64,000 nucleotides of DNA from an uncultured virus (IMG/VR IMGVR_UViG_3300031539_000017) (lineage: Duplodnaviria; Heunggongvirae; Uroviricota; Caudoviricetes). The notes under the pieces were generated by a model. It did not search any database. It was given only the letters and a program-made list of their open reading frames with translations, and was not told the DNA's origin. Every line of letters starts with the position of its first letter. Positions within the stretch are counted from its first letter, which is position 1. A program made the translations under genes and the position numbers. The stretch lies in the IMG/VR virus record IMGVR_UViG_3300031539_000017. One strand, 5' to 3'. Positions 1 to 62,060 of the stretch are shown one piece after another.

Positions 1-62
1 TTTTGCGCAAAAGTCAGGAGGCGGTTTTCTTTTGCCAGCAAAAGGTTCTAGTGACCTATAAT
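1..62 (+). promoter_or_regulatory. Bipartite palindromic element copy 1 (box A then box B) with -10
   Basis: TTTTGCGCAAAA 1-12, TTTTGCCAGCAAAA 30-43, TATAAT 57-62, then GGAGG and ATG 79. Confidence 0.8.
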
Positions 63-78
63 GAGAATGGAGGTGGGT

Positions 79-273
79 ATGGATGAAGAAAAGCTATTCA
101 ACCGGGAAGTCGATGACGTGCTCTATGATGCCCGTGGTTGTCTCAGGGACCCCGACGTTTACCCTGACAGCCTTGAGGGGCGGGCTGAGCTGGCCCGTTG
201 GCAGGAGGCAGAAGCGATGGGGATGGACCCGGCCACGGTGGACCTGCTGGACTCCGGCCAGTTGGGGTTGTGA
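79..273 (+). CDS. Hypothetical protein
   Basis: ORF with GGAGG RBS before ATG 79. Confidence 0.6.
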   Translation: MDEEKLFNREVDDVLYDARGCLRDPDVYPDSLEGRAELARWQEAEAMGMDPATVDLLDSGQLGL

Positions 274-400
274 GCTGTGAGTATGGGGGCGGCGGTGGGT
301 CAGCAGTGAGATCGGCTATGGCGTCACGGGTCGGACCAACGCCACTGTGAAAACGTAGGCCGGGCCTCCCCCCGCCTCCTTATTTAGACAGGAGGAAACG

Positions 401-742
401 ATGACAGAAGAAGCCGAAAACCCAGAGGTGGTAGAGTACCCGTTCGTCCTGCGGTCCTTGACACTGCGGGACGTGGGCAAGTTGCCCGGCCCGGTGCAGT
501 ATTCGTCTAGGGAGTACGGCACCCCTTATGCGACTTTCGACGTGAACTGGTCCGCGGAGGTCGTGGTGGAGGCCAACCCTGATGACCCGCTAGTGGAGGT
601 TAGTGCGGCCCTGGGGGCGTTGATGAAGTGGTTTCAGAGCACCGGGGCGAAGATGGGCCGTGAGGTCCTGGCTGATATTGAGTTGAGCAAGCAAGAGGCC
701 CGGCTGGGCATAGTCCCTAGCGTGGATGCCAACGAGCTATAG
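401..742 (+). CDS. Hypothetical protein
   Basis: 113-aa ORF, AGGAGG RBS. Confidence 0.7.
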   Translation: MTEEAENPEVVEYPFVLRSLTLRDVGKLPGPVQYSSREYGTPYATFDVNWSAEVVVEANPDDPLVEVSAALGALMKWFQSTGAKMGREVLADIELSKQEARLGIVPSVDANEL

Positions 743-753
743 GAGGAAACGAC

Positions 754-1788
754 ATGGCAAAGGTACAGGAGACTGAAGGACGAGGGGATTTCGAGCATGT
801 GCCGCAGGGTGACTACATCGCCTTCTTCGCAGGGTTCGTGCCCCGCGACGAGAACACGATGAAGCCGCGAATCAACCAGTTTGATGAGTGGAAGGACGGG
901 GTGAAGACAGGTGGTACGGCGCCTGCTCTGCTGTGGAAGTTCGAGATCATCCACCCCAAGGAGCACCGCGGCGAGGCGCCCACGGGCAAATCATGGTGGA
1001 AGGCCCTACGGGTGGTCCAGAACGAGAAGTCCGAGAACGTCGTACAGGTGGACCGTGTGGGCAATCTGATCACTAACATCGTCAAGTGGTCTGAGCACTG
1101 CGGTATAGAATGGGCTGCAGACCTGGGGGCGGCACTGCCTGACAAAGGCCAGATCACTGACCAGATGATCGTGGAGGCCCTGGAGAGGGCGCTTTTGGAC
1201 CATGCCCGTGAGGGTGCGCTTGTGGTCATCAAGATCGGTGAGACCGGTTACGTGGATACCAAGGATCATAACAGCGACTGCGTGATGCCTTTACCTGCGG
1301 GGCCACAGGCCAAGAAAGTTGAAGGCATCAAGTACGAGGTGCCGGACTTCTACGGTGATGCGGGGATGTCAGGTGTGGAAGCAGGAAAGTGGGCCGATGA
1401 GGATCTGGACGCGATGCGGGGTTACCTTCGTGAAACCCTACAGCCGGCCCTGATTACAGGGGAGTCGGTGTTGACTATCATGGATGCCAAGGAACGGGAG
1501 TGGCTGGCCCAGGCATTGTCTGCGGGCGGTTCAGATTACGCTCTGCGGGCACAGACCTTCGCTAACAGTATGATCGCGGCGGGGTTCGATGCGGTGGATA
1601 CCAGCCTGTTGATTAGTCTGGTGGCCCTGGTCACAGGCGCACCGGCCAAGGGTAGGATTGTGGATTCACTGGCCCCGCCGCAGCTTGAGGCAGCTGTGGA
1701 GCACCTGGTGGTCTTTGCGCGGGCCTTAGGCAAGGAAGTCCCTGATGTGCCTGTGCGGGATGCCGATGAGGGTGAGATACCCTTCTAG
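754..1788 (+). CDS. Putative single-stranded DNA-binding protein
   Basis: 344 aa, acidic C-terminus ending DEGEIPF like SSB tails, beta-rich N-terminus, replication region. Confidence 0.5.
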   Translation: MAKVQETEGRGDFEHVPQGDYIAFFAGFVPRDENTMKPRINQFDEWKDGVKTGGTAPALLWKFEIIHPKEHRGEAPTGKSWWKALRVVQNEKSENVVQVDRVGNLITNIVKWSEHCGIEWAADLGAALPDKGQITDQMIVEALERALLDHAREGALVVIKIGETGYVDTKDHNSDCVMPLPAGPQAKKVEGIKYEVPDFYGDAGMSGVEAGKWADEDLDAMRGYLRETLQPALITGESVLTIMDAKEREWLAQALSAGGSDYALRAQTFANSMIAAGFDAVDTSLLISLVALVTGAPAKGRIVDSLAPPQLEAAVEHLVVFARALGKEVPDVPVRDADEGEIPF

Positions 1789-1795
1789 GGGAGTT

Positions 1796-1821
1796 GGGGC
1801 AGGCGGAGGATTGCCTGCCCC
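1796..1821 (+). terminator. Stem-loop after SSB-like gene
   Basis: GGGGCAGGCGG-AGGA-TTGCCTGCCCC; U-tract weak and displaced. Confidence 0.45.
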
Positions 1822-1854
1822 GATCTTGCCTGTTTTACTGAGGAGGGGGAAGTG

Positions 1855-2052
1855 ATGTATGTTCAGATTAGGAAGAATGGACCTTGGCACATAGTTAGCC
1901 GGGGTAAAGATAGCGTTCTTTGGAGGGGAAGGGAATGCACCGCTTGCGGCATTCCACAGCCAGAGAGCTGGCCGGAGTTTGCTTGACCCACGATAAGCAG
2001 CAGCCCCCGCGAACCACTCTGCAAACGCTGCCTGAAGAGGAGGAAGAAGTGA
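1855..2052 (+). pseudogene. Small Zn-binding protein gene interrupted by in-frame TGA at 1984-1986
   Basis: AGGAGG RBS; MYVQIRKNGPWHIV...TACG...PEFA*PTISSSPREPLCKRCLKRRKK*; second stop overlaps next GTG start. Confidence 0.55.
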
Positions 2053-2273
2053 GCGAGAGAGAGAAGATGGAGACCATAACACTAGATGAATTGTGCGACT
2101 TCGATGTGGTGCCCGCTGATGGGTGGTACATTGCCGGAGAAACTATGGAAGTCTACAGCAGCGGCAGGCGCGTGGAGCTTGGAGAGAAGGTCTATTGCTG
2201 GAACGGTTGGGTCTGTGATGACGAAGAAGATGCCCGCAAGCTCAGCATGATGCTAGATCTGGGCACGATATAG
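2049..2273 (+). CDS. Hypothetical protein
   Basis: GTG start after GAGGAGG. Confidence 0.6.
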   Translation: MSEREKMETITLDELCDFDVVPADGWYIAGETMEVYSSGRRVELGEKVYCWNGWVCDDEEDARKLSMMLDLGTI

Positions 2274-2309
2274 GCGGACTCAGAGCCGGAGATGGACGGA
2301 GGATGAATC

Positions 2310-2528
2310 ATGACCATGAGCAAGAGGAAGATACTGGCGCGCCGCAACAGACTTCGCGGGACGCTATGCTCAGGGTGCAGACACAACTACTACAACTGGC
2401 CCAAGGCTGCGAGCCCTCGGGGAGATGTAGCGGTGGCCGATGACTATTACTGCTGGCACCTACCGGACGTAGACCTGCGGAAGAAGGAGCCTTGCTGGGC
2501 GCGGTTCGTACCGGGCCAGTATCGTTGA
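2310..2528 (+). CDS. Cys-containing hypothetical protein
   Basis: 72-aa ORF, CSGC motif, GGAGG RBS. Confidence 0.55.
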   Translation: MTMSKRKILARRNRLRGTLCSGCRHNYYNWPKAASPRGDVAVADDYYCWHLPDVDLRKKEPCWARFVPGQYR

Positions 2529-2554
2529 CACCATCACTGCTACAGGAGGAAGAA

Positions 2555-2812
2555 GTGAGCACCGAGAGAGAACTGAGGGAAGCAATAGAAGATTATGATG
2601 TGAACATCGGCCTTGACCAGAGTGCCGTTGCATACGACGGGATAATACAGGCCCTCGACGCCGCCCCCGACGGCCCGCAGATGGACCGGCTGGTGGAGTG
2701 GCTGGAGGAGAAGCGGACGACGCCAGCCAACACACCGGGAGACCGGGGCTGGGAGTCAGCATTTACGGTAGTGCTCCACCATATCGACGAGATGCAGGAG
2801 GAGCAGCCATGA
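2555..2812 (+). CDS. Hypothetical protein
   Basis: GTG start after AGGAGG; ATGA overlap with next gene. Confidence 0.6.
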   Translation: MSTERELREAIEDYDVNIGLDQSAVAYDGIIQALDAAPDGPQMDRLVEWLEEKRTTPANTPGDRGWESAFTVVLHHIDEMQEEQP

Positions 2813-3282
2813 TCTTCAAACAGTGGAGGCAGGTACTCAACGGGACCAAGACGCAGACGCGGCGGCTCAGAGGAAACAGAGATGTGTTCGACATGATGAT
2901 GTGCAAGGAGCCATTCAGAGATACGGTGTTTCGGAAAGGCGTGGTGAAGTGGCAAGTTGGCCGCACCTACGCCTGCCAGCGTCCCGACGGCAAGACGATG
3001 GGGCGGACTCCTCCGCTGCGCAAGATACGGCGGGAGCGGTTGGGGGACATCTCGGACGCGGATTGCTACGCTGAGGGCATTTTGGAGGTCGAAGTCCTCG
3101 ACCCGCTTTTGCGGCGGTTGGCTCACTATCCGTATCACCTTGTCTGCCCGCTGTGCGACGGAGCCTACGAAACGCCACAATCTGCCTACGCCTGCCTCTG
3201 GGACTGCTGCGGTGGGCGATGGGAGAATGACCAGAATGACGATACGTGGGTGCTAGGGTTTGAATCGGGGTCGGGCCTCTAG
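2809..3282 (+). CDS. ASCH-domain protein
   Basis: VLNGTKTQTRR (GxKxxTxR) and RERLGDISDADCYAEG motifs typical of ASCH/PUA-like proteins. Confidence 0.75.
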   Translation: MIFKQWRQVLNGTKTQTRRLRGNRDVFDMMMCKEPFRDTVFRKGVVKWQVGRTYACQRPDGKTMGRTPPLRKIRRERLGDISDADCYAEGILEVEVLDPLLRRLAHYPYHLVCPLCDGAYETPQSAYACLWDCCGGRWENDQNDDTWVLGFESGSGL

Positions 3283-3335
3283 TGGAAACCTATTACTACT
3301 AGGGGACACTGCCCGGCCCCGAGAGGAGAGGGAGG

Positions 3336-4010
3336 ATGGATAAGGAATGGCTTGAGAGAAGGCTGTATAAGCGAGTGGGAACCATCTACGGTGTCCAAGA
3401 AAAGACTGAGGACGTTGACACCATCGCCGCCCAGCACGAGCAGGATGTAGCGAGCTTGGTAGCGGTTCGTGATATGTACGCCATAGAGATAGAGGGTCTA
3501 CAGGCGCAGGTGGCGGAGATGGGCGGGGCGCTGGAGTATACGCTTGTTCGGCTGAAGCCTCTCCTTGAACTAATGCGCGAAGACAGAAGGCCGACAGAGT
3601 GGGTGGAGAAGATAGAAAAGGCCCTCACCGGTGCGCCGAAGGTGCTCTATCGTGTTCTCGGTAAACTCGCAAATCTAGATCCGGAGTTGATTCCAGTTGT
3701 GCATATATGCCAGGGGCAACCCATAGATTTGTGCACGACACATCTATTTCACTATGGGAAGATAAGCGGTTCTCCTGTCGCTGTGCTAGTGCTTGAGTGT
3801 CCACCCAAGGGCGAACAGGGCTATAAGCGAGCCAGGGGCGTGATCTCGCTGGGGGGCAAACGGCCAGAGGATGTGATAGCGGAGATGAGAGGTAGGCCCA
3901 CGGAGAGCGAACAGGACTTCCCCGGGATCGAGGCGTTTGACGTGGAGCCGGATGGAAGAATCAAGCGCGTAGAGAGCGAACAGGAGGAGGCCACGGATGA
4001 GGCTAATTAA
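3336..4010 (+). CDS. Hypothetical coiled-coil protein
   Basis: 224-aa ORF, strong RBS. Confidence 0.65.
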   Translation: MDKEWLERRLYKRVGTIYGVQEKTEDVDTIAAQHEQDVASLVAVRDMYAIEIEGLQAQVAEMGGALEYTLVRLKPLLELMREDRRPTEWVEKIEKALTGAPKVLYRVLGKLANLDPELIPVVHICQGQPIDLCTTHLFHYGKISGSPVAVLVLECPPKGEQGYKRARGVISLGGKRPEDVIAEMRGRPTESEQDFPGIEAFDVEPDGRIKRVESEQEEATDEAN

Positions 4011-4194
4011 GCGCATTTGCGAGGGCTGTATTGGAGATGTGGGGATTTGTCGGGAGAGGGGGATCATCAACAGACTAGAGAGCGTGAGGCGTGTGCTGTC
4101 AACCGAGTATACTGACGCCTTTGATTTGCTGGCGGGCATGGCGTCTTGTCCCAACAAGAAGAGCTTCAGGCGCGAGGAGGCCACTGATGACTAA
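3997..4194 (+). CDS. Hypothetical protein
   Basis: GAGGAGG RBS, overlaps neighbours. Confidence 0.55.
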   Translation: MRLIKRICEGCIGDVGICRERGIINRLESVRRVLSTEYTDAFDLLAGMASCPNKKSFRREEATDD

Positions 4195-4411
4195 GTGCTT
4201 CTGCTTGGATTCACCGTTTGAGCGTATGCCCATCAATGTGAATGAGCGATGCCTGGATTGTCCTACCGATTGTGGGCACAACCCCAACGCCCTGAAATGG
4301 GATGGGACCTGCTTGATCTGTGCAATGGAATGGGCCGTTGAGCTATTCGATGGCCTAGAGGAACGGCTTGCCACAGGCGCGTATGCAGACAGGGAGGCCA
4401 CCGATGGATGA
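4187..4411 (+). CDS. Cys-rich hypothetical protein
   Basis: GAGGAGG RBS, ATG 4187. Confidence 0.55.
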   Translation: MTKCFCLDSPFERMPINVNERCLDCPTDCGHNPNALKWDGTCLICAMEWAVELFDGLEERLATGAYADREATDG

Positions 4412-4844
4412 GCAATTCAGTCAAGCCTACAAGGACTTCATGCTCAGCGATGAGGCGCAGGGGTTGCAGAAACACCTAGATATTCGCTTTGGGACCGCAA
4501 TCCTTGCGCCGGTCATGGGGCATGACGTGATTGTATTCGTCACTGAGGTTGAGCACGACCCCAGTGCAGCGTGTGACTTCTATGCTATCTTCGAGGGCTC
4601 TGGTACGCCTAACGCATTTCTGCGTGAGGACGTGACGGTGCTCCCCTCCCTCTCCCAACTGCTCGGCGTCATCGAGGGGGCTGGGTGGGAGTGGCGCAAG
4701 TTTGCAGGATTAGTCTATGGATGGCCGATTGATCCTAACGCCAAAATCAATGCTGAATACCCTGTGTCATTTGACGACAAAGACCTTATGCTCGCCGCCG
4801 CAAAGCTGGCGGCGAGGGCGGTGGAGGAGGTCACTGATGGCTAG
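4404..4844 (+). CDS. Hypothetical protein
   Basis: GGAGG RBS, ATG 4404. Confidence 0.6.
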   Translation: MDEQFSQAYKDFMLSDEAQGLQKHLDIRFGTAILAPVMGHDVIVFVTEVEHDPSAACDFYAIFEGSGTPNAFLREDVTVLPSLSQLLGVIEGAGWEWRKFAGLVYGWPIDPNAKINAEYPVSFDDKDLMLAAAKLAARAVEEVTDG

Positions 4845-5310
4845 GGTTATTGTTAATTGTGGAGTAGTCCCTATTCAGCAAGGGGAGCAGGCTGATGGGG
4901 TGATCACCTTTGGTAAGCACGCAGGCCAGAAGCTGGGTGATGAGAGCATTTCATTCCGTTACCTGGCATGGGTCTATGCCTGGCTGGAGAACAACAGCCT
5001 ACCCCCGAGCCTGGTTCATGTGCTGGAGCTAGTCTGGTACTGGGGTGACCGCAAGTGCTCCGAGGCCCAGCAGGGGGACGATAGGGAGTTCGACGAGTAC
5101 GTGGACGAGGCCCGGCTGGGCATGGATGAGGCCTTCAAGGAAGAGAGTGAGGCCAAGAGATTGCAGGGTTTCCAGATGACCTACGACTATGATCCGGACC
5201 GGGACAACTGGGGCGTGGTGAGCCTGCGGGAGAAGCGTGTCCGAGACAAGGAACGGGCTCGTGAGAAGGCTGGTAAGGTTGTGGCGGAGGCAGTGGGGGG
5301 CAATGGCTAG
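4837..5310 (+). CDS. DUF3820-like domain protein
   Basis: ITFGKHAGQKL...YLAW motif (FGKH/YxG...YLxW). Confidence 0.55.
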   Translation: MARVIVNCGVVPIQQGEQADGVITFGKHAGQKLGDESISFRYLAWVYAWLENNSLPPSLVHVLELVWYWGDRKCSEAQQGDDREFDEYVDEARLGMDEAFKEESEAKRLQGFQMTYDYDPDRDNWGVVSLREKRVRDKERAREKAGKVVAEAVGGNG

Positions 5311-5671
5311 GGCTGGCAGGCATATCATCAACCGCGTCTACTGGGCGGCTCAGGGGGCGATGGGAGCGGACTGGTCCGAGTCCGACCAGGGTATGAACAA
5401 GGCGCTTATCGGATATCTACTGGACCGGGGCTATTCTGAGAAGGACATCATTAGCTGCGCAAGCTATGTGGGCCGGGAGCGATACATTGGCATAACGGAT
5501 ATGCGGCGTGTGCGCAACGTCATTGCGGCCTGGATACGGTCTGGTAGGCCTGAGGCACCCATGAAACCCGGTGAGGTTGTACGGCTGGGCAAGATAGAGG
5601 ATTATGGGCGGCTGGGGCAGAAGGTGGATCATTGGACAGAGCGATTACGGAGGCGGAGAAAAGCTGAATGA
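5303..5671 (+). CDS. Putative replication initiator (helical, DnaD-like)
   Basis: Directly upstream of the DnaC-like ATPase; call mostly positional. Confidence 0.4.
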   Translation: MARAGRHIINRVYWAAQGAMGADWSESDQGMNKALIGYLLDRGYSEKDIISCASYVGRERYIGITDMRRVRNVIAAWIRSGRPEAPMKPGEVVRLGKIEDYGRLGQKVDHWTERLRRRRKAE

Positions 5672-8653: not shown

Positions 8654-8655
8654 GT

Positions 8656-8799: not shown

Positions 8800-8804
8800 T
8801 GGTT

Positions 8805-9869: not shown

Positions 9870-9906
9870 TCCATCCTCCTCATCCTCCTCACACGCCTAG
9901 CAGGAA

Positions 9907-10561: not shown

Positions 10562-10623
10562 TTTTGTGCAAAAGCCGGGGTGACGGTTTCTTTTGCTGGC
10601 AAAGGGTTGGGCTGTGGCATGAT
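10562..10623 (+). promoter_or_regulatory. Bipartite palindromic element copy 2 (A then B) with -10
   Basis: TTTTGTGCAAAA 10562-10573, TTTTGCTGGCAAAG 10591-10604, TGG-CATGAT 10618-10623. Confidence 0.75.
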
Positions 10624-12085: not shown

Positions 12086-12114
12086 TTGACAAGTTACAAA
12101 CTATGCTGTACAAT
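12086..12114 (+). promoter_or_regulatory. Sigma70-type promoter upstream of terminase operon
   Basis: TTGACA-17 nt-TACAAT. Confidence 0.75.
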
Positions 12115-15023: not shown

Positions 15024-15066
15024 CTTTGCCAGCAAAGGAAACGCTGGCCTAGCCTTTTGTGCAAAA
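15024..15066. promoter_or_regulatory. Bipartite palindromic element copy 3 (B then A)
   Basis: CTTTGCCAGCAAAG 15024-15037, TTTTGTGCAAAA 15055-15066. Confidence 0.75.
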
Positions 15067-34136: not shown

Positions 34137-34198
34137 TTTTGCGCAAAAACCTGGAGCATCTTTTCTTTTGCGGGCAAAAGGTTCACGGGGGCGATAAT
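34137..34198 (+). promoter_or_regulatory. Bipartite palindromic element copy 4 (A then B) with -10
   Basis: TTTTGCGCAAAA 34137-34148, TTTTGCGGGCAAAA 34166-34179, GATAAT 34193-34198. Confidence 0.8.
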
Positions 34199-34226
34199 AT
34201 GGGCAAAAGAGTTCACGGAGGGCATC

Positions 34227-41392: not shown

Positions 41393-41454
41393 CTTTTCGC
41401 CAAGTTGATGGTTCGCAGTTCTTTTGCCAGCAAAACATCGCCCTGGTGTATAAT
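41393..41454 (+). promoter_or_regulatory. Bipartite element copy 5 (degenerate A, then B) with -10
   Basis: CTTTTCGCCAAG 41393-41404, TTTTGCCAGCAAAA 41422-41435, TATAAT 41449-41454. Confidence 0.75.
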
Positions 41455-42624: not shown

Positions 42625-42686
42625 TTTTGCACAAAAGAGCGAGCCATCCGTTCTTTTGCCAGCAAAAGGTTGAGTCTAACTATACT
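42625..42686 (+). promoter_or_regulatory. Bipartite palindromic element copy 6 (A then B) with -10, upstream of glycan island
   Basis: TTTTGCACAAAA 42625-42636, TTTTGCCAGCAAAA 42654-42667, TATACT 42681-42686. Confidence 0.8.
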
Positions 42687-51977: not shown

Positions 51978-51980
51978 GAC

Positions 51981-52023
51981 CTTTGCTGGCAAAAGGTTTG
52001 GGTGTGGTATATTTTGTGCAAAA
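51981..52023 (+). promoter_or_regulatory. Bipartite element copy 7 (B then A) with -10 overlapping box A
   Basis: CTTTGCTGGCAAAA 51981-51994, TGG-TATATT 52008-52013, TTTTGTGCAAAA 52012-52023. Confidence 0.8.
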
Positions 52024-52034
52024 GGGAGGACACC

Positions 52035-54427: not shown

Positions 54428-54491
54428 ATGGATCAACGACCTAAATGCACAGGTCATAGAGTGTGATGAAGGTGGAGGATGAGGAGGAGAA

Positions 54492-54638: not shown

Positions 54639-54704
54639 ATGCCCAAGTGGACTGAGGATCTAAACGCATAGGTCATAGAACGCGACGAAGGTGGAGGATG
54701 AGGG

Positions 54705-55246: not shown

Positions 55247-56637
55247 TCTGCGCTGACTCTAGGGCTGCGCTGGCAGAGATAGAAGAGGGGAGCGTACAGT
55301 GCTGCATCACCTCTCCGCCATACTGGAGCCTCCGCAGGTACGGCGATGCAGCGGAGATGGTCTTTGGCGGCGATGCTGGCTGTGAGCATGAGTGGGGGCA
55401 GCACATTGTCAATCGGCGGGGCGCAGGCGGCGAGAGGGAATATGGCAGCTCTGATAGCGGTGTGGGCCGGGGGCCGGCACCCGAGTTGCCCTCCTCCAAT
55501 ATCTGCTCCCTCTGCGGCTGCTGGCGCGGTCAGTTCGGATTAGAGCCCACCCCCGAGATGTACGTGGAGCACATGCTGGACTTTTTGCGGGCAATATGGC
55601 GGGTGCTGAGGGATGATGGGACGCTGTGGCTGAATCTCGGGGACTCTTATGCGAGTCAGGGGGGGGCTAAGACAGAAGCCTCATACGCCTCAGCAGGCAC
55701 GGGCAATAGTGCCAATCGGACGCTGCGGGTTGATGCCCGGAGACCACCCGGAGGCCTCAAGCCCAAGGACCTCGTGATGATCCCCTTCCGCGTGGCGTTG
55801 GCTGCGCAGGCAGACGGGTGGTGGGTGCGGTCGGTGATCATCTGGTCCAAGCCTAACCCCATGCCAGAGTCAGTGCGGGACAGGCCGACAACGGCGCATG
55901 AATACGTGTTCCTCTTGACGAAGAGCAAGACCTACTTCTACGATGCCGATGCGATAAGGGAGCCATGTACCATGACGCCCCAGGCCAGGTTGACTCCACG
56001 AGACATGAAGAATGGCAAGGATAGCCAGCGGGCCGTTCACCGTAGACCACAATACCAGCTCCGAGATGAGCCAGGGGTAGAGGGCAACCCATTAGGCCGC
56101 AACAAGCGTACGGTCTGGGAGATAGCCACGGCCCCATATCCCGGCGCCCACTACGCAACATTTCCTCCCAAGCTAGTAGAGCCGATGATACTGACCACGC
56201 CCACGAAGGTCTGCGCTGAGTGCGGGGCTGGGTGGGAGAGGGTGGTTCAGAAGCCCGACATGAAGGAGCGACCAAAGCGCAACCAGCAGAAATACGGAGC
56301 AGAGCGCATCAATGTTGGCTGGGGTGACTACCCGCAGAGCGCGGGGCAGGAGTGGCAAAAGTGGCGCAACGAGAACCCTGACGTAACCCTTGGCTTCCGC
56401 CCCACCTGCTCCTGTGATGCTGAGACCAAGCCCGCCGTCATCTTAGACCCCTTCTGTGGTAGGGGCACCGTTCTCAAAGAGGCAAGAGCGCATGGCCGGG
56501 ACTGGATAGGCATAGACGTCGATCCTCAATCTATCAAGCTGGCGGAGGAATGGCTGGGGCTAGGGGAGGTTACCTATGAGATTGACGAAGAGCATTGGAT
56601 ACAGCCGCAATTAGTCAATGAGGAGTCAGCACAATGA
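55240..56637 (+). CDS. DNA methyltransferase (beta class, SPPY, probably N4-cytosine)
   Basis: ITSPPYW, LNLGDSY, IWSKPNPMPES, HYATFP, LDPFCGRGT. Confidence 0.9.
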   Translation: MLICADSRAALAEIEEGSVQCCITSPPYWSLRRYGDAAEMVFGGDAGCEHEWGQHIVNRRGAGGEREYGSSDSGVGRGPAPELPSSNICSLCGCWRGQFGLEPTPEMYVEHMLDFLRAIWRVLRDDGTLWLNLGDSYASQGGAKTEASYASAGTGNSANRTLRVDARRPPGGLKPKDLVMIPFRVALAAQADGWWVRSVIIWSKPNPMPESVRDRPTTAHEYVFLLTKSKTYFYDADAIREPCTMTPQARLTPRDMKNGKDSQRAVHRRPQYQLRDEPGVEGNPLGRNKRTVWEIATAPYPGAHYATFPPKLVEPMILTTPTKVCAECGAGWERVVQKPDMKERPKRNQQKYGAERINVGWGDYPQSAGQEWQKWRNENPDVTLGFRPTCSCDAETKPAVILDPFCGRGTVLKEARAHGRDWIGIDVDPQSIKLAEEWLGLGEVTYEIDEEHWIQPQLVNEESAQ

Positions 56638-57896
56638 TCTTTTCCAATCGTCACGAGGTGGAGACACACCTGGCTGAGCAGGCCGATGGGGGTGTCATCG
56701 TCGAAGTGGGCTGCGGCGTAGGCGATGGCCTGGTGGCCCTGCTCAACGGCACGCGGTACGGTAGACTTTTGCCTGTGTATGCTGTCGATCCTTATACTCC
56801 CTACGTGGACAAGCTGGGGGGCACCTACGGGCCGGAGAGCAAGCAGGAGGCCCTGGATAAGGTGGTGGGCACGGGGTTGGGGCGGTTGGTGGCCTTCGTC
56901 GAGGAGGACGGCGTACTGGTGGGCGAAAATTGGGACTTGCCTACGGCCCTGGTGTGGATTGACGTCAGCATGGAGTATGACGGTCTCAAATGCGTCTGGG
57001 ACGCCTGGGCGGACAAGGTCATGGAGGACGGACATATCGCTATCGCGGGCCTGGGTTATAGCAGCCTGGGTACAGCGCGGGTGATGCAGGAGGCCGTTGA
57101 CTCGGGGGACTTCGTGCGGGTGCTGTCGGAGCAGGACAGGGTGGCGGTACTACGCAGGGTGCCCCGGAATAGGCGGGCCGTGTTCTACATCGTGGATGGT
57201 GAACCCTATGCTGAGGAGGCGGCTTACAGTGCGTCCAGTGTCAAGGAGCACATGCCCGGCGTGGAGACCTTTCTGTTTGCGGTGGGTGGCACAGGGGCCA
57301 GGGAGAGCATCGACCACGTAGTGCTCTTGCCGCCTCGGGAGAGCGAGCTGTGGTACCTGGACAGCACGCGGTACTTCAACCAGGCGGTGGCGCACCTCCA
57401 CGAGTACAACCGTCTTTTGTACCTTGACACGGATACCTGGGTGGCCTGGGACTGTTTGGATATGTGGTGGCTCCTAGAGCAGTTTGACGTGTGCCTGGGG
57501 CACAGTGCGGGCCGGGAGGCCATGCCTTCAGCGATTGGGACGCCCCCGGCGTTCACTACCCTGTCTATCGGGGTTAGTTTATTCCGCAACAACGCGGAGG
57601 TCCGGGCTACGCTGGCGGACTGGCTGGCGTTCTACGAGAAGTACCAGGGCATCTACGGCGACAATGATGAGAGTCCTTTAAGGGATGTGCTGTGGCTGAA
57701 TCGGCAGGGGCTGAAAATGTATATCCTGCCCCCTGAGTACAACGTCCGAGCTGGGTTTGGGTGCTGGCTCTACGGTCGGGCTAGGATAGTTCATGCTCGG
57801 CTGCCTCGGTTGAGGCATGTAGCAGAGCAGTTGAATGAGCACACGTCTATGCGTTTGTGGCACGATGGTGAGTTCTTGTGGTGGCATCAGAAGTGA
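56634..57896 (+). CDS. Methyltransferase-like domain fused to GT8-like glycosyltransferase
   Basis: VEVGCGVG..AVDP; then LYLDTD, NDESPLR, LPPEYN. Confidence 0.75.
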   Translation: MIFSNRHEVETHLAEQADGGVIVEVGCGVGDGLVALLNGTRYGRLLPVYAVDPYTPYVDKLGGTYGPESKQEALDKVVGTGLGRLVAFVEEDGVLVGENWDLPTALVWIDVSMEYDGLKCVWDAWADKVMEDGHIAIAGLGYSSLGTARVMQEAVDSGDFVRVLSEQDRVAVLRRVPRNRRAVFYIVDGEPYAEEAAYSASSVKEHMPGVETFLFAVGGTGARESIDHVVLLPPRESELWYLDSTRYFNQAVAHLHEYNRLLYLDTDTWVAWDCLDMWWLLEQFDVCLGHSAGREAMPSAIGTPPAFTTLSIGVSLFRNNAEVRATLADWLAFYEKYQGIYGDNDESPLRDVLWLNRQGLKMYILPPEYNVRAGFGCWLYGRARIVHARLPRLRHVAEQLNEHTSMRLWHDGEFLWWHQK

Positions 57897-57909
57897 AAGG
57901 TGGTGAAGG

Positions 57910-58188
57910 ATGGACAGCAACGTCTTAACCCGAGGCATAATTCCCCTGAGGCGCATCAAGCGCCTGCGTAGGTGCATGAACCCCAGTTGCCGCTTCGTGG
58001 TCGGCGCGGGCAAGATGGCCTTGGAGAGCACCAACATCGGTGAGTTCGCGCGGTTGACCTGCCCTAAGTGCGGAGCACTGCATGTGTTCAACCCCATCTC
58101 TACTGTGAGGCCTGATGCTGAGCGGCACATCTTCGTGGTCCGTGACCGGGGTGGTCAGGTAGAGCATATTTTCCCGAGGGTGCAATGA
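57910..58188 (+). CDS. Zn-ribbon protein
   Basis: CMNPSC...CPKC. Confidence 0.6.
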   Translation: MDSNVLTRGIIPLRRIKRLRRCMNPSCRFVVGAGKMALESTNIGEFARLTCPKCGALHVFNPISTVRPDAERHIFVVRDRGGQVEHIFPRVQ

Positions 58189-58634
58189 GGCGGCGCTACT
58201 TTGAGTGGGATTACGTTAGTAACCGCATGACTGAGTGGGCTCGCGTGGGGCACTGCTGCCAGTGCGCCGCGTGTTGTCAGAACAGCATCGGCTTCAAGTT
58301 TGAGAGCAGCAAGCTCTATGAAGCGAAGAAATCGGGCAGTTACTACACCACTGGCAAGGGCATCTGGCAGGAGGTCCGCGTAGGGGGCCGGTACAGGCAC
58401 TTCTTCCAAATGGAGTACGTGGCTGCCAAAGGGAAGGGGTGCGCCAGCCTGGAGCGTGGCTTGTGCGAGGAGTATGAGCACCGTACTTGGATTTGCCGGG
58501 AGTGGCCCTTCTCGCCGCGCTGCATAGAAGCCACCTCGGAGTGTACTTATGGATTCCGCGAGGTTGATCGTAGGTCTTTTGTGGTCGTCGTCCCTGAGAA
58601 GGACGAGGGCGATTTCGTACATGTGCCATTGTAG
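58185..58634 (+). CDS. YkgJ-family cysteine cluster protein
   Basis: CCQCAACC...C....C..YEHR..IC.EWP. Confidence 0.75.
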   Translation: MRRRYFEWDYVSNRMTEWARVGHCCQCAACCQNSIGFKFESSKLYEAKKSGSYYTTGKGIWQEVRVGGRYRHFFQMEYVAAKGKGCASLERGLCEEYEHRTWICREWPFSPRCIEATSECTYGFREVDRRSFVVVVPEKDEGDFVHVPL

Positions 58635-58643
58635 GAGGGTGTT

Positions 58644-59303
58644 ATGGTCACTAAGGCCATCATGCTCATCCACGTCTTCCGGACCGGTGGTTACATGGTG
58701 CAGGGGGTCCTACGGAAGGTCCCTGGCCTGGTGATGGTCTCGGATAGGCCCACGGAGCACCTGACCTATGATCAGATGGCTGTGGTGTGCGCGAGAGAAC
58801 GCATGGGGAACCCGCCCGCTATGGTTTTTATCCGCAACCCTTTTGACTGGTATGTCTCTATGTGGTGCTGGGTCAACATGGCGCCGAACATGCCTCCAGT
58901 CTCGGAGTTCCGCGAATACCTGGAGGTCATCCGGGTGCGGCGCTATGGCACCACGGGGACGGGCCGCAACTATAGCAGGCTCTCCGAGCACTGGGCTGAC
59001 ATGGGGGCAGGCAAGGCGCAGTGGGAGGGGCGCTTTGAGACTCTACGGGAGGACTTCATGGACATCATGCTCAAGGTCATGCCCAGCCTGGTGAACGAGA
59101 AGATGTTAGGGGACCTCATGGCCAAGGAACCCATCTATCACCCCAGCAGGCATCCTCAGACAGGTAGGCATCCTGGGGACTATCGGCAATACTACACCCC
59201 GGAGACAAGGGCATTGGTCGAGGAGTGGGACAGTGAGCTTCTAGAGCGGTTCGGTTACACTTTTGAGGAGAAGGTAGATGATATACCCAATCCCGGTGCC
59301 TGA
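58644..59303 (+). CDS. Sulfotransferase family 2-like protein
   Basis: IHVFRTGG, RNPFDWYVS, GRFETL, YRQYY, FGYTF. Confidence 0.75.
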   Translation: MVTKAIMLIHVFRTGGYMVQGVLRKVPGLVMVSDRPTEHLTYDQMAVVCARERMGNPPAMVFIRNPFDWYVSMWCWVNMAPNMPPVSEFREYLEVIRVRRYGTTGTGRNYSRLSEHWADMGAGKAQWEGRFETLREDFMDIMLKVMPSLVNEKMLGDLMAKEPIYHPSRHPQTGRHPGDYRQYYTPETRALVEEWDSELLERFGYTFEEKVDDIPNPGA

Positions 59304-60171
59304 TGAGTTCCGCCCGGCCAGCCAGGGTTACACTATGCCGCCGCACTGCCCGCCGGAGGGGTACGGCGTGGAGCAGGACTTTGACGCTTGGTTACGGACG
59401 CAAGGGGAGCTTTTGACTGATTCCGCGGAGGCCGACTGGCTGTACCTCCCGGTGTTCTGGAACCGGCTCTTTATTGCCACCTGGAAGTGGGCGCAGGATG
59501 AGGCCGCCATAGCCCGCTGCGCCGATTGGCTGGCGGCTCTCAGGGATAGTTTGGGCGGCTTTGAGAGGGTGTTCACCGTCTGTGAATGGGACCTGACCAC
59601 GGAGCGGCAGGAGCTGGGCACGGACGGGCTGACTGTGTTCACGGCGGGGCGTCGGGATCGCGCAGGCCTTGATATACCGTTGCTCTGTGCCCCACATGGC
59701 GTCCCGCCGGTTTCATACGGCAAGCAATACCTGGCGTCATTTGTGGGCAACATTGGGACGTCAGGCTGGCGTCAGGGTATGTTGGAGGCCCTGGAGGGCT
59801 ACGGCGGGGTCCTCATCGAGCACGCACAGAAGGGGCCAGCCTATTTCTGTGATGTGATGACCAAGAGCTACGTGGCCCTGGCCCCCAGGGGTCACCGGGG
59901 GCAGAGCTTCCGGTTCTACGAGGCCATGGACATGGGTGTGGCCCCGGTCCTGATCGGTGATATGGATACCCGGCCCTTTAAGAATTGGGTCAATTGGGAC
60001 TCATGCTCTTACTACGTTCCTGACGCCTCGGAACTTCCCGGCTTTATTGACAACCTGGACCTGGAGGACGCGTTACGCAAGGGCGCGGAGGCGGCACGGG
60101 TATACCATGAGTGTCTGCGGTTCGGGCGGTGGTGCATGTTTGTGGTGCCTGAGCTGCTGAGCGTGCCGTAA
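59278..60171 (+). CDS. Exostosin-like (GT47) glycosyltransferase
   Basis: ASFVG, KSYVALAPRG..SFRFYEAM..G..PVLI. Confidence 0.8.
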   Translation: MIYPIPVPDEFRPASQGYTMPPHCPPEGYGVEQDFDAWLRTQGELLTDSAEADWLYLPVFWNRLFIATWKWAQDEAAIARCADWLAALRDSLGGFERVFTVCEWDLTTERQELGTDGLTVFTAGRRDRAGLDIPLLCAPHGVPPVSYGKQYLASFVGNIGTSGWRQGMLEALEGYGGVLIEHAQKGPAYFCDVMTKSYVALAPRGHRGQSFRFYEAMDMGVAPVLIGDMDTRPFKNWVNWDSCSYYVPDASELPGFIDNLDLEDALRKGAEAARVYHECLRFGRWCMFVVPELLSVP

Positions 60172-60445: not shown

Positions 60446-60474
60446 TTGACAAAATATAAACGATGTGTTATAAT
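60446..60474 (+). promoter_or_regulatory. Consensus sigma70 promoter, probably early
   Basis: TTGACA-17 nt-TATAAT with TGn extension, AT-rich context. Confidence 0.9.
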
Positions 60475-60531
60475 ATAGGTAAGATGAGGAACCAGAGAGC
60501 AGAGTAACAGGATACCACAGAGGAGGAGACG

Positions 60532-60765
60532 ATGGCAGAGAGAACGGATTACCCAAGGAACCTAGCTGAGATTGCAATACAGGGCGCTATTGCCCAGCTT
60601 GGTCAGGCAGATAGCCTCTTGCAGAGGTATCAGGCTGAGTACGACCTTCTTCACCACGAATTGGGTGATGATGGCGGCACGGAAGCCGCGCCAGCGCGCC
60701 ATGCGGTGGAACAGGCCCTCAATCGTCTGGAATATGCCTTGCAGGAGACTAAGCAACTCTCATAG
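60532..60765 (+). CDS. Hypothetical helical protein
   Basis: AGGAGG RBS, first gene after promoter. Confidence 0.65.
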   Translation: MAERTDYPRNLAEIAIQGAIAQLGQADSLLQRYQAEYDLLHHELGDDGGTEAAPARHAVEQALNRLEYALQETKQLS

Positions 60766-60834
60766 CCGAAACTGGGGTGGAGGCCCCGGTCACCCGCGAT
60801 GCCGCCGTGCGGGTCCGATGAGGCGATGGGCGGC
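60761..60834 (+). ncRNA. Type II hammerhead ribozyme with pseudoknot, variant core CCGAUGA
   Basis: Stem II CATAGCC/GGCGATG, GAAA 60768-60771, stem III CTGGGG/CCCCGG, GUC 60789-60791, stem I ACCCGCG/TGCGGGT, CCGATGA 60815-60821, loop GCCGCC pairs with 3' GGCGGC. Confidence 0.8.
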
Positions 60835-60849
60835 GAGAGGAGGCAACAC

Positions 60850-61512
60850 ATGAAAATCCTGGCAACTGATGAGCAGAGTCTTGCACGCTGGCAGCGCCTA
60901 CGCCCTACACCCAAGCAGATGCTCCGGATGGGCACCAATAAGAAGACATTTCACTGCGTGCGCTTTGGGCAGCTGGAGGCCTGGGGCAACGGGTTCTTCC
61001 TGCTGGTGGGGAACTCGCCGGACGTGCCTATGGAGGATATGACCCAGCGCATGCAGCGGTTCTCGGACTGGTCTGACATGAAGGACCGGCTGCTGACGCC
61101 GGGGGCTTGCCCTGTGGAGCCGCTGCTGTACCTGGAGGCTGACCGCTACAGCGTGCAGGAGCGCCGCTTGCTGGTGATGGAGATGCGGTCGCCCACGGAC
61201 AGCGATGTGATCATGGAGCACCTTACCGTCAATGCAACCATGGCGCTCTTCATAGAACGTGAGTGCAGGGCGCGGTTCCCCGAGGACTGGATATTGGGCT
61301 GGCGGGGCAACCTGTCGGCGGAGGCCAGGATTCACGGGTGCGCCAAGGTACATCCCAAGCCATTGACGTATTGCGTAAGGGGTCCGGGAGCTGGCTATAC
61401 CGCTGCTGGCGTGCTGATGCCCAGGACGTGGGGGAGTCAGTTGGTGAGCAAGGATGGTAGTGTGGCGCTCCAGTATGATGTGACCCGCAGGGTTTGTTAT
61501 CGAGACGCTTGA
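60850..61512 (+). CDS. Hypothetical protein
   Basis: GAGGAGG RBS, ATG 60850. Confidence 0.65.
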   Translation: MKILATDEQSLARWQRLRPTPKQMLRMGTNKKTFHCVRFGQLEAWGNGFFLLVGNSPDVPMEDMTQRMQRFSDWSDMKDRLLTPGACPVEPLLYLEADRYSVQERRLLVMEMRSPTDSDVIMEHLTVNATMALFIERECRARFPEDWILGWRGNLSAEARIHGCAKVHPKPLTYCVRGPGAGYTAAGVLMPRTWGSQLVSKDGSVALQYDVTRRVCYRDA

Positions 61513-61528
61513 TGAAAGGGGATAGAAG

Positions 61529-61771
61529 ATGACTGGCGCTGAGGTGATTGTATACGGGTTTGCTGCTGTTGGGTTCATAATAGTACTCTGCGTAGCACTA
61601 GGGGCTACAGAGGTAGTCGCCGAAGGTATGGTTGAGGATCGCAGGGAACAAGCTGAAATAGATACTCGGAAGGTGATTCAGGAACTTGAGATAGCCCTGC
61701 GCCACGCACGTCAGCCAGAGCACATTCTACTGCCCGCTATGATGGAGGTGAACGATGTCGCACATAGTTGA
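61529..61771 (+). CDS. Small membrane protein
   Basis: N-terminal hydrophobic helix. Confidence 0.55.
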   Translation: MTGAEVIVYGFAAVGFIIVLCVALGATEVVAEGMVEDRREQAEIDTRKVIQELEIALRHARQPEHILLPAMMEVNDVAHS

Positions 61772-62015
61772 TCCGCGCAATGTGAGGCCGGGGGACCTGA
61801 AGCCTGGCGATGTAATGATAAGAACGGTGGCGCTTCATGTGTTGCCGGACTACACGGGAGGCCGGTTGATGTACCCGATGTACCTGTGCCCGTGGCCGGA
61901 TTCATCCCTTGTAGATGGTGTGCCCCAGGGCGCACGCATGGAGGGCAAGCCTGAGACCATGCAAGAGATATTCCCGGTGGTGGGCAATGCTGGGGCCAAG
62001 CCGGACCCGATGTGA
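61755..62015 (+). CDS. Hypothetical protein
   Basis: GGAGG RBS. Confidence 0.6.
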   Translation: MSHIVDPRNVRPGDLKPGDVMIRTVALHVLPDYTGGRLMYPMYLCPWPDSSLVDGVPQGARMEGKPETMQEIFPVVGNAGAKPDPM

Positions 62016-62017
62016 TG

Positions 62018-62060
62018 TTTTGCTGGCAAAGGAAAGTATGGGCTGCGCTTTTGCGCAAAA
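62018..62060. promoter_or_regulatory. Bipartite palindromic element copy 8 (B then A)
   Basis: TTTTGCTGGCAAAG 62018-62031, TTTTGCGCAAAA 62049-62060. Confidence 0.75.

Follow-up and report, generated by a model that had tools for sequence, protein, structure and literature searches.

Paired palindromes at a fixed distance of 30 bp form a common gene-control module in an uncultured soil phage lineage

Results

Eight paired palindromes in a siphovirus-like phage

The DNA analysed here (the window, 64,000 nucleotides) is not part of a cellular genome but lies inside one member of a related pair of siphovirus-like phages, A and B, of ~70-75 kb each, which are joined via a shared tnpB/repeat region into one 143-kb contig. 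Most of the phage proteins match no family, and the terminase is closest to those of phiC31-like Streptomyces phages, with a similarity of only ~25%. An earlier note on this DNA had described eight pairs of palindromes, boxes A and B, distributed over what was called a genome. The spread of the sites over the whole replicon was upheld, but the replicon is a phage and the contig consists of two related phages joined. All the coordinates given for the pairs were correct (Table 1), as were the distance of 30 bp from centre to centre (8/8 pairs), the count of five A-B and three B-A pairs, the degenerate state of the box A at 41393 and the intergenic placement, all eight pairs lying between ORFs.

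Each full pair forms a module of 43 bp, in which box A (TTTTGYRCAAAA) is followed by a 17-nt spacer with TTYC at its end and by box B (TTTTGCnnGCAAAA). Box B is a 14-bp dyad with the symmetric arrangement TTTTGC-nn-GCAAAA, and box A has the same half-site without the 2-bp centre. A single rigid dimer would not tolerate this 2-bp difference in half-site spacing, and two proteins may be involved. Since both boxes are palindromes, their order is meaningful only relative to the direction of the genes; the module itself is asymmetric, since the side of box B that faces box A carries a TTYC flank, which flips with the module.

A comparison with shuffled sequence placed the counts of both boxes far above chance. 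The box B pattern TTTGCNNGCAAA had 8 matches in the window, all of them in the listed modules, against a mean of 0.03 in shuffles (8 matches were reached in 0/100), and the box A pattern had 7 matches against a mean of 0.00. When a position-weight matrix built from the seven full modules was scanned over both strands of the 64 kb, these modules scored 46-61 bits, as against 26.9 bits for the degenerate one; an additional partial match at 34166 on the minus strand reached 26.1 bits, and the next best place 9.6 bits. Moreover, all exact copies of box A in the 143-kb contig (11/11) are located 30 bp from a box B or a box B-like site.

Table 1. Modules, -10 hexamers and canonical promoters in the window, with weight-matrix scores
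Feature	Position	Strand	Boxes	Score (bits)	-10 hexamer	Context and relatives
P1, forward	1..43	+	box A 1-12, 17-nt spacer, box B 14-mer 30-43	59.4	TATAAT 57..62 (+), 13 nt past box B; then GGAGG, ATG at 79	upstream of replication and early-type genes; ortholog in phage A, G000 139583-139625
P2, forward	10562..10604	+	box A 10562-10573, box B 10591-10604	55.3	CATGAT 10618..10623 (+)	small genes and terminase genes downstream; in relatives L131, L133, L135-L137, L142, L149, L160
P3, reverse	15024..15066	+	box B 15024-15037, box A 15055-15066	58.2 (minus-strand reading)		
P4, forward	34137..34179	+	box A 34137-34148, box B 34166-34179	60.7	GATAAT 34193-34198 (+), within 34193..34208; overlaps half box A	tail genes downstream
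P4 third, half box A	~34197-34208	+	centre 30 bp downstream of box B	26.1 (reversed reading at 34166)		
P5, forward	41393..41435	+	degenerate box A 41393-41404, box B 41422-41435	26.9	TATAAT 41449..41454 (+)	amidase and lysis genes downstream
P6, forward	42625..42667	+	box A 42625-42636, box B 42654-42667	59.3	TATACT 42681..42686 (+)	epimerase, glycosyl-transferase, methyl-transferase cluster downstream
P7, reverse with promoter	51981..52023	+	box B 51981-51994, box A 52012-52023	46.3	TATATT 52008-52013 (+); box A covers expected transcription start	
P8, reverse	62018..62060	+	box B 62018-62031, box A 62049-62060	58.6		
Canonical promoter TTGACA-17-TATAAT	60446..60474	+				upstream of operon running into P8
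Canonical promoter TTGACA-17-TACAAT	12086..12114	+				strong hairpin next

A -10 hexamer at a fixed distance from box B

All distinct forward modules (20/20) carry a sigma-70-type hexamer (A2, T6) exactly 13 nt after box B, and the earlier arithmetic of this distance, together with a TTGCnn 19 nt from the hexamer, is correct when box B is taken as the 14-mer. The hexamer was TATAAT in five modules and TATACT, TATGAT or TATGCT in three each, with other sequences in the rest, and a ribosome-binding site and a start codon come within the next 19-55 nt. Relative to the predicted transcription start, box B of the forward modules spans about -39 to -26, with its centre near -32.5; box A lies further upstream, at about -68 to -57. 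As the -10 is fixed 13 nt past box B, box B therefore occupies the usual place of the -35 element. No TTGACA-like -35 was found at 17 ± 1 nt: P1 reads CCAGCA, GCCAGC or TGCCAG at 16-18 nt, the other modules have the equivalents of these non-consensus hexamers, and TTGCnn stands at 19 nt in every forward module. A scan with the promoter consensus did not pick up the modules.

The phages also hold perfect TTGACA-17-TATAAT promoters, and that at 60446..60474 has an orthologous perfect site in phage A (G000 52377); the modules therefore represent a second class of promoters. Since perfect 17-nt promoters are conserved in both phages, the sigma factor of the host is conventional and a distance of 19 nt is not its preference. 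TTGCnn had been taken for a -35 element with a 19-nt spacer; the distance was verified, but the role is doubtful. The invariance of the 19 nt in 20/20 forward modules, although the phages hold perfect 17-nt promoters, speaks against recognition of TTGCnn by sigma as a -35, and a factor on box B more probably takes that place. The left and right halves of box B show the same degree of conservation, in better agreement with a dimer than with a sigma domain.

The reverse (B-A) modules keep the inner geometry, but a -10 is present at only one of the three positions. The only credible hexamer is that of P7, where a -10-like hexamer is retained in 4/4 lineages; the spacer of P3 has no conserved -10, and P8 has none (GCGCTT in three lineages). 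At the mirror place of the reverse modules, A2 and T6 were found together in only 2/13. Two of the three reverse positions are without a promoter, and activation is therefore not their role. As previously described, box A of the B-A copies sits beside the ribosome-binding site, which it adjoins in both P3 and P8. Because the reverse modules keep the TTYC flank and the 30 bp without needing a -10, the A-B pair is a unit in itself. The order of the boxes may set activation versus repression, as had been suggested.

Conservation of the boxes and drift of the spacers

About nine modules are present per phage, invariably intergenic and at matching positions in A and B, and between the two phages the boxes are 89% identical and the spacers 54%. 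In seven orthologous pairs, 75/84 positions of box A and 87/98 of box B were identical, as compared to 64/119 in the spacer and 70/147 in the 5' flank. Within phage B, 36 pairs of modules had identities of 0.72 and 0.86 in the boxes versus 0.26-0.39 elsewhere. At the level of sequence comparison, the boxes and the 30-bp geometry are shown to be under selection while the spacers drift, and the claim that the spacer sequence varies is borne out.

A pattern search beyond the window, in the spirit of the proposed motif scan of relatives, revealed the module in 26 metagenome stretches on 23 other contigs; the spacing was fixed in the pattern, and the absence of other spacings in the relatives is therefore not inferable from it. 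According to blastn, 24 of the 26 stretches are ~70-91% identical to the 143-kb contig, with the module at matching gene junctions. None of the RNA runs searched contained the sequence. The half box A of P4 is kept in phage A and in the relatives L129, L139 and L153, and in relative L155 box A is complete at the intergenic position equivalent to P5.

Search for a cognate regulator

Like the earlier note, we recognised no cognate regulator: Pfam, PHROGs, the PDB sequence search and the ESM Atlas revealed none in phage A or B, and neither did two structure models. No MerR or helix-turn-helix family was detected with Pfam at E up to 0.5-1 among 72 + 24 + 46 + 4 proteins, and no CII-like protein was found. 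MotA and AsiA homologues gave no match in Pfam or PHROGs, which distant analogues could escape.

Discussion

The eight paired palindromes are real and are a common gene-control module of an uncultured soil phage lineage. The sequence evidence supports a repeated, selected, bipartite docking element for a protein, which is linked to promoters across the whole replicon. In the best explanation, which holds about half of our confidence, the 43-bp unit would be a transcription-control module specific to the phage lineage, in which a factor on box B replaces the -35 contact and box A acts as a helper or a brake. The host RNA polymerase with its main sigma factor would read the -10, and a dimeric factor on the box B dyad would substitute for the missing, wrongly spaced -35 contact; this factor would most likely be phage-encoded, from an operon under a canonical promoter. 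A second dimer would bind box A cooperatively, 30 bp away on either side. An upstream box A would help, whereas a downstream one (at about -8 to +4, by the ribosome-binding site) would brake initiation at P7 and P4 and block read-through at P3 and P8. With one factor acting on the modules, the phage could thus switch from a few canonical promoters to the module-driven operons. Several points count against this reading. A dyad with its centre near -32.5 would clash with sigma region 4, and it has to be assumed that this region is moved aside or that the factor binds the opposite DNA face. The distance of 30 bp corresponds to 2.86 helical turns, which is not a whole number. Genes for replication, packaging, tail and lysis all have modules in front of them, and the presence of a module alone therefore gives no early/late split. 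Also against it are the failure to find a regulator in either phage, the 2-bp difference in half-site spacing between the boxes and the lack of a promoter at two of the three reverse positions.

A bolder version, which we consider unlikely, is that the -35 contact of the host polymerase is taken over by a dimer of dimers made of one phage protein or a pair and that the module is invertible, so that the forward orientation would be on and a box A over the start or a reversed module would brake or block. If true, this would be a takeover resembling sigma appropriation in a soil siphovirus, with the whole gene programme in one 43-bp word used in five layouts (A-B, A-B-A', B-A with a -10, B-A without a -10, and B alone).

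Alternatively, the modules could be pure repressor operator pairs on self-sufficient promoters (TTGCnn as a weak -35 with a good -10), all operons being shut by a cooperative dimer-of-dimers repressor for lysogeny or late shut-off, with the promoter-less reverse modules as stoperator-like roadblocks. Box A working on either side of box B at an equal distance is expected of cooperativity and not of polymerase contact; also, box B overlaps the -35 position, the downstream box A overlaps the transcription start, and the promoter-less modules lie in the path of read-through. Nevertheless, we regard this alternative as rather unlikely, given that the 19-nt distance is invariant in the forward modules of phages that build perfect 17-nt promoters, that one repressor on every operon would provide no temporal order, and that no integrase, repressor-like helix-turn-helix protein or divergent immunity region was found in the phages.

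A host protein (a global regulator or an alternative sigma factor) could also read the boxes, the phage borrowing the signal of a host regulon. This would agree with the failure to find a phage regulator and with the early-type genes behind modules, which need expression before any phage protein exists. However, a search of 596 billion bases of prokaryote genomes, a collection from which the host is possibly absent, gave just 4 matches to the bipartite pattern, all of them in unrelated, AT-rich surroundings and one per genome; the symmetric conservation of 14 bp is also unlike a sigma -35 contact. We consider a host reader to be quite improbable.

The modules seem to mark places of gene exchange between related phages. 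Several breaks in the A/B homology are at modules, one A/B alignment resumes precisely with box A of P4, a different gene stands behind P8, phage B alone has an 80-aa gene after P7, and a 94%-identical tnpB segment begins at box B of P9. That the boxes are retained chiefly as sites where gene cassettes recombine, as in PeSL cassettes, with regulation secondary, is nonetheless very improbable, since it leaves the -10 distance, the dyad symmetry and the 30-bp geometry unexplained, and P3, P5 and P6 are inside long collinear blocks. It is hardly credible that the module acts as an RNA or DNA structure (a hairpin, terminator, processing site or cruciform): its four equal half-sites could pair with each other, the folds of two of the eight modules, P6 (z -6.6) and P2 (z -2.6), are much better than those of shuffled sequence and a conserved long-range inverted repeat encloses P6, but the other six folds have z between -0.43 and +1.14, the stems would consist of 4-6 A-U-rich pairs, no enrichment of terminator-like sites was seen (11 versus 9.7 expected in 1-20000), no co-variation in the spacers preserves pairing, and no Rfam family matches.

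Phages of uncultured soil bacteria are almost unannotated. The module offers a ready map of transcription units for a whole phage lineage, and its two dyads in fixed geometry make a sharply defined DNA bait for a new transcription factor.

Comparison with known systems

The analogy with MerR-type activation that had been drawn did not hold. The 19-20-nt spacer typical of MerR promoters is present (TTGCnn, 19 nt, hexamer), but the dyad, at about -39 to -26, includes the -35 position and does not lie inside the spacer. The 13 nt beside the -10 lack conservation (identity of 0.36 among paralogous modules), and the Pfam scans showed no protein of the MerR family.

The middle promoters of T4, at which AsiA and MotA appropriate sigma, are similar in that a host-type -10 is combined with a phage box in place of the -35 at a fixed short distance, and in that many promoters use the box alongside canonical early promoters. 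A gap of 12 ± 1 bp separates the MotA box from the -10, and with a gap of 13 bp the box covers -35 to -26 (PMC2988021); box B ends 13 bp from the -10 in 20/20 forward modules. However, the MotA box is asymmetric, about 9-10 bp long, read by a monomer and has the core TGCTTtA, which is not the sequence of box B, a 14-bp dyad with a partner dyad at 30 bp; furthermore, the present phage is unrelated, siphovirus-like and without detected MotA or AsiA relatives. If box B replaces -35 recognition, this would be a second, independent solution to the MotA/AsiA problem, by means of a dimeric factor and an invertible module.

The site of the CII activator lies across the -35 position of promoters without a good -35, and the module shares with the CII-dependent promoters of lambda and P22 a site of TTGC tetrads in that position. 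That site is given as TTGC-N6-TTGC (PMC2629481). It is a direct repeat with a 6-bp gap, whereas here TTGC-N2-GCAA is inverted, with a 2-bp gap and longer T/A arms; the second site at 30 bp has no counterpart in the CII promoters.

Stoperators of Cluster A mycobacteriophages (L5/Bxb1-type immunity repressor) are likewise many genome-wide intergenic copies of one short site, which, according to the account cited, stop elongation and repress promoters (PMC9283540). By analogy, they are a possible model for the promoter-less reverse modules. However, they are single, asymmetric sites of 13-14 bp, bound by a monomer in one orientation relative to transcription, in contrast to two symmetric boxes with fixed spacing, present in both orientations and mostly with a promoter.

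PeSL (promoter-early stem-loop) cassettes of T4-type phages, described as small repeated intergenic regulatory cassettes at points of gene exchange (PMC2839356), resemble the modules in this coincidence with exchange. A PeSL is a strong canonical promoter with a terminator hairpin, whereas the module has neither a terminator nor a canonical -35 and also serves structural and lysis operons.

In phiC31, conserved inverted repeats are known, with many near-identical non-canonical early promoters that each have a palindromic operator. Many look-alike non-canonical promoters are thus tied to a palindrome in one phage, as here, but there is one repeat per site, the repressor is known and the sequences are unrelated to the module. 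It is well known that phages have their own repeated promoter and operator motifs, and this kind of element is not surprising; the module is a variant, not a new kind, of phage control element.

The boxes form one oriented module beside a -10 hexamer

The earlier note had described eight intergenic pairs of palindromes, box A and box B, with an invariant spacing and in both orders. Every box was found where it had been placed and falls between ORFs, and each pair is 30 bp apart, centre to centre. Box B (TTTGCNNGCAAA) occurs in 8 copies in the window against 0.03 expected and box A (TTTTGYRCAAAA) in 7 against 0.00, which puts the pairs above chance. When the window was scanned with a weight matrix, the eight modules (26.9-60.7 bits) were set apart from the background (9.6 bits at most), and one additional partial site of 26.1 bits was detected. 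The whole contig holds 13 exact and 4 one-mismatch copies of box B and 11 exact copies of box A, each of the 11 having a box B, or a site like it, at a distance of 30 bp. Phage B, one of the two related phages joined in this contig, has nine module positions (P1-P9), and phage A showed eight matching ones; its P2 region would land at the contig ends.

Read with box A leftmost, the module consists of box A (12 bp), a 17-nt spacer ending in TTYC and box B (14 bp, TTTTGCnnGCAAAR). The half-site TTTTGC is common to both boxes, and box B equals box A plus two central bases. In all copies, including those in B-A order, the TTYC flank adjoins box B on its box A side. This implies that the module is one oriented unit, used both ways relative to the genes. 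A sigma-54 reading (TGGCA...TTGC inside box B) was rejected by eye, on the misfit of the GG/GC spacing and on the opposite centre in half the boxes.

The forward (A-B) set comprised distinct modules with at most one box A mismatch from the contig, the viral record G004 and metagenome stretches; seven metagenome stretches that are pieces of the contig itself were left out, as were P5 and P9, in which box A is degenerate or absent. In 20/20 of these modules, the second and sixth bases of the hexamer starting 13 nt past box B were A and T, as in a sigma-70-type -10. The hexamer was TATAAT in five, TATACT, TATGAT and TATGCT in three each, AATAAT in two, and CATGAT, GATAAT, TAAAAT and CACGAT once each. 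P5 and P9 also have TATAAT 13 nt past box B. Further on in the forward modules, within 19-55 nt, come a ribosome-binding site of GGAGG type and a start codon.

Both orders occur in the window, A-B at P1, P2 and P4-P6 and B-A at P3, P7 and P8. At the mirror place of the reverse modules the same two bases were found in just 2/13, which is close to chance, and an antisense promoter at these modules was therefore rejected. Within the B-to-A spacer, P7 alone keeps a hexamer resembling a -10 at the expected offset (TATATT, TATCAT, TATATT and CATCTT in four lineages). P8 has GCGCTT at the same offset in three lineages, and nothing is conserved at the -10 offset in the P3 spacer. P4 combines its upstream box A with a half box on the other side of box B. 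This half box (GCAAAAG arm) is conserved, has its centre 30 bp downstream of box B and overlaps both the start region and the -10.

P6 and its -10 lie inside a long-range inverted repeat whose arms (GGGGCAGG / CCTGCCCC) are separated by 98 nt. The phage A arms, both of them changed (GGGGCGGGGTCG / CGGCCCCGCTCC), stand 94 nt apart. By eye, the P6 -10 is also within a local 7-bp inverted repeat. The repeat around P6 may serve as a second operator or, in read-through RNA, for processing.

Features of the window, of phage A and of the contig (window coordinates unless a contig, G000, or a stretch of it, L-number, is given)
Feature	Window	Phage A or contig	Remark
Modules A-B with -10	P1, P2, P6; P5		P5 with weak box A
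Module A-B with -10 and downstream half box A	P4
Module B with -10, then box A	P7
Modules B-A without -10	P3, P8
Module B with -10 alone			P9, before tnpB, beyond window
Promoter TTGACA-17-TATAAT	60446	phage A 52377
Promoter TTGACA-17-TACAAT	12086	phage A 415	related one at 1448
Promoter TTGACA-17-TATACT			before tnpB
Promoter and hairpin	12086-12185	phage A L028 1448-1547
Inverted repeat around P6	42604-42717	phage A L029 13424-13541
Early-type genes, ~10 kb	1806-11790	G000 67,562-77,546	phage B
Large terminase	12590-14251
Three small proteins	14464-15881
Tape-measure protein	31433-34024
Epimerase	42743-43747
17-kb modification block	42743-60171
Sugar- and methyl-transferases			long gene run
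72-aa acidic protein	62610-62828
Cys-rich protein	63749-64153
Other recognised genes			Dit-like and further tail proteins, amidase, DnaC-like helicase loader, exonuclease
DnaB			just beyond window edge
tnpB and mini-array		L032 6462-8010 (G000 ~136.2-137.8 kb)	beyond window
tnpB and mini-array		L031 ~2460-3846 (G000 ~62.4-63.85 kb)	beyond window

Two related phages share the modules

The window corresponds to bases 65757-129756 of one 143,142-bp contig with 58.6% G+C. Of the 188 ORFs picked, the + strand carries about 156. Tailed-phage genes are recognisable in the window and the contig (Pfam, PHROGs); the majority of the phage proteins had no family match. The contig follows a single genome plan twice over, in collinear copies that have diverged to a nucleotide identity of 70-94%. 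A 69,345-bp viral record (G001, rated 93% complete) fuses contig bases 1-63,847 directly to 136,022-143,142 through the shared tnpB segment; G003 shows the identical join, and G002 corresponds to contig bases 62,926-104,364. The shared tnpB-plus-repeat segment is 94% identical between its two join regions (~62.2-63.85 kb, L031 2226-3847, and 136.0-137.6 kb, L032). In three soil-metagenome runs the Logan contigs break at the end of this segment, and the summed depth falls about threefold there, from ~90-200 to 34-43. Given these records, the breaks in the Logan contigs and the drop in depth, the 143-kb contig most likely arose in assembly, by the joining of two related phages that differ in abundance. 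Phage A (~69 kb) spans bases 1 to ~62.2 kb plus 136.0-143.1 kb and occurs without phage B in independent records; phage B (~74 kb) spans ~63.8-137.6 kb and contains the whole window.

Phage B has ~10 kb of early-type genes without a phage A counterpart, the matching part of phage A being ~1.8 kb plus the contig ends. This stretch, from P1 to just beyond P2, is a replaced cassette region. The 17-kb block holds an epimerase, glycosyl-, sulfo- and many methyl-transferases, a radical-SAM/SPASM protein and two N6/N4 DNA methylases, one of them a fusion with a ParB-N domain; unusually bulky for a ~74-kb phage, it suggests surface-sugar or DNA modification. Behind the terminase, three successive small proteins (185, 137 and 133 aa) with a common N-terminal '...IAGRG/IAGHG...' motif flank P3. 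They belong to the best-conserved A/B segments (90% nucleotide identity) and had no family match.

In both phages, a gene for a 403-aa TnpB-family RNA-guided nuclease is directly followed by a CRISPR-like mini-array. Its 29-nt repeat has a palindromic core and is present in 4+1 and 2+1 copies; the spacers (31-33 nt) differ between phages A and B and matched nothing among the sequences compared. The repeat core had 0 matches in the prokaryote genome set and, among viral contigs, was confined to this phage group. The mini-array could be a phage array using host Cas proteins, or the TnpB could have been caught beside an array.

The boxes are conserved where their surroundings diverge

Phages A and B were compared at seven orthologous positions; P2 and P9 were excluded, the former for want of a partner and the latter because it belongs to the mobile segment (94% identical). 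The identity was 0.89 in box A (75/84) and in box B (87/98), 0.54 in the spacer (64/119), 0.64 in the 13 nt ahead of the hexamer (58/91) and 0.48 in the 5' flank (70/147). Among the 36 module pairs within phage B, the boxes were 0.72 (A) and 0.86 (B) identical and the remainder 0.26-0.39.

In addition, we scanned 241 million metagenome records for box A-17 N-box B, a pattern in which the 17-nt spacing is built in and which is blind to other spacings. It returned 33 stretches, 7 of which are the contig itself and 26 lie on 23 other contigs. Blastn likeness to the contig, about 70-91%, was found in 24 of these 26; L132 is kin at the protein level only, and L154 shows no kinship. The related stretches occupy matching gene junctions and have diverged spacers, and one of them (L155) carries a full box A at P5, whose counterpart in phages A and B is decayed. 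The prokaryote genomes scanned, 596 billion bases, gave four matches to the pattern, always in AT-rich, unrelated contexts. The 14-base box B pattern alone gave more than 116 single hits in viral contigs, taken as chance matches and uninformative. Together, these data establish the module as a selected, protein-sized, symmetric, bipartite DNA element at a fixed distance from a host-type -10.

The modules probably also have a real but secondary role as recombination junctions. Several A/B homology breaks coincide with modules: the alignment resumes at the P4 box A, genes are gained or replaced immediately past P7 and P8, and the tnpB segment begins at the P9 box B.

How the module may act

The module is very probably a promoter/operator read by a putative dimeric factor. 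The earlier note had taken TTGCnn inside box B for a -35. It is the sole -35-like reading, and the 19 nt between it and the -10 never vary, but it is probably not read as a -35. Both halves of the box B dyad are equally conserved. Because of this constant distance and these equal halves, a dimeric factor docked on box B would replace the -35 contact; that it does so as an activator we consider an even bet. If transcription starts ~7 nt past the hexamer, box B would span about -39 to -26 (centre -32.5), and box A would fall at -68 to -57 when upstream and at ~-8 to +4 when downstream. A search of RNA sequencing runs found none that contains the sequence. Working on either side at equal distance, box A could be a site for cooperative binding rather than for contact with polymerase, and a downstream copy should hamper initiation or read-through.

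A plain repressor-operator module would account for the side-independence of box A and for the promoter-less modules, but it leaves the invariant 19-nt distance unexplained, and we regard it as unlikely. It is still less probable that a host factor reads the boxes. An action of the module as an RNA or DNA structure is very unlikely, since 6/8 module folds were no better than shuffles, terminator-like sites were at chance level and Rfam gave no match in the window. A tRNA scan of the window returned nothing either.

Perfect or near-perfect canonical promoters stand at matching places in both phages and make up a second promoter class. Their retention in both implies that the main sigma factor of the host is conventional, and the module phages are able to build a 17-nt promoter where needed. 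Behind one of them, just upstream of a small-terminase-like gene, a G+C-rich hairpin of 15 bp and a CUUUG follow within ~10 nt of the expected start (-40.1 kcal/mol, z -5.5; phage A copy z -3.0). This hairpin had no Rfam match; it could form part of a short RNA or act as an attenuator.

With a dimeric factor reading the modules, a cascade could begin when host polymerase initiates at the canonical promoter at 60446, whose transcript would run through P8 into small conserved genes for Cys-rich and basic proteins. We conjecture that one of these proteins then opens the module promoters and shuts its own operon at P8.

Search for the regulator and the host

As in the earlier note, no cognate regulator was recognised, now by Pfam, PHROGs, ESM Atlas, PDB sequence and model searches. 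Pfam (72, 24, 46 and 4 proteins) and PHROGs gave no DNA-binding regulator, and helix-turn-helix, MerR, sigma, MotA/AsiA and CII families were absent from the phage proteins scanned. Candidate proteins fell into unnamed ESM Atlas clusters only or had no match, and a PDB sequence search with four of them found none below E 0.04. The best lead, a weak one, is the 72-aa acidic protein, which has a ribbon-helix-helix-like match (RHH_4, E 0.003-0.0045) below the Pfam cut-off. Its A/B identity is 89%, whereas its upstream neighbour is replaced, and only 2 relatives were found among 5.8 billion proteins. A single-sequence AlphaFold model predicts three helices and no strand (pLDDT 71), with no PDB match at E <= 0.001 (Foldseek). 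The Cys-rich protein (~133-134 aa) has four Cys pairs and ~88% A/B nucleotide identity; its model (pLDDT 43.4) was unusable. Further candidates are the 150-aa and 116-aa proteins, which like these two belong to the Cys-rich or basic products of the operon behind the canonical promoter at 60446 (genes 60534 to ~67000), and an 83-aa zinc-ribbon protein at 10824-11075.

In the host search the terminase had zero matches in prokaryote genomes and the best TnpB identity was 41%; megablast against cultured phages gave no match. The best prokaryote matches of the epimerase (50-54% identity) were mostly to Anaerolineae and other Chloroflexota metagenome genomes, a weak hint that the host phylum leans to Chloroflexota.

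Comparison with known systems

Repeated phage-specific promoter/operator motifs are already known from T4 middle promoters, stoperators, phiC31 repeats and PeSL cassettes. The phiC31 motifs are inverted repeats, and the lambda CII site lies across the -35 position. The T4 MotA box is described as sitting 12 +/- 1 bp from the -10 (PMC2988021), and lambda CII is reported to bind TTGC repeats (PMC2629481). The proposed action of box B resembles both in outline. Stoperators are presented as repeated motifs of this kind (PMC9283540), and the probable junction role of the modules recalls PeSL cassettes as described in PMC2839356. A literature search with the box strings found no description of these sequences, the matches being primers and unrelated sequences. 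Particular to the present system are a dyad in the -35 position whose distance to the -10 is always 13 bp, a partner dyad that shares its half-site and has a centre 2 bp shorter, a rigid 30-bp geometry, and the appearance of the complete unit in either orientation, in five layouts and in every functional gene block.
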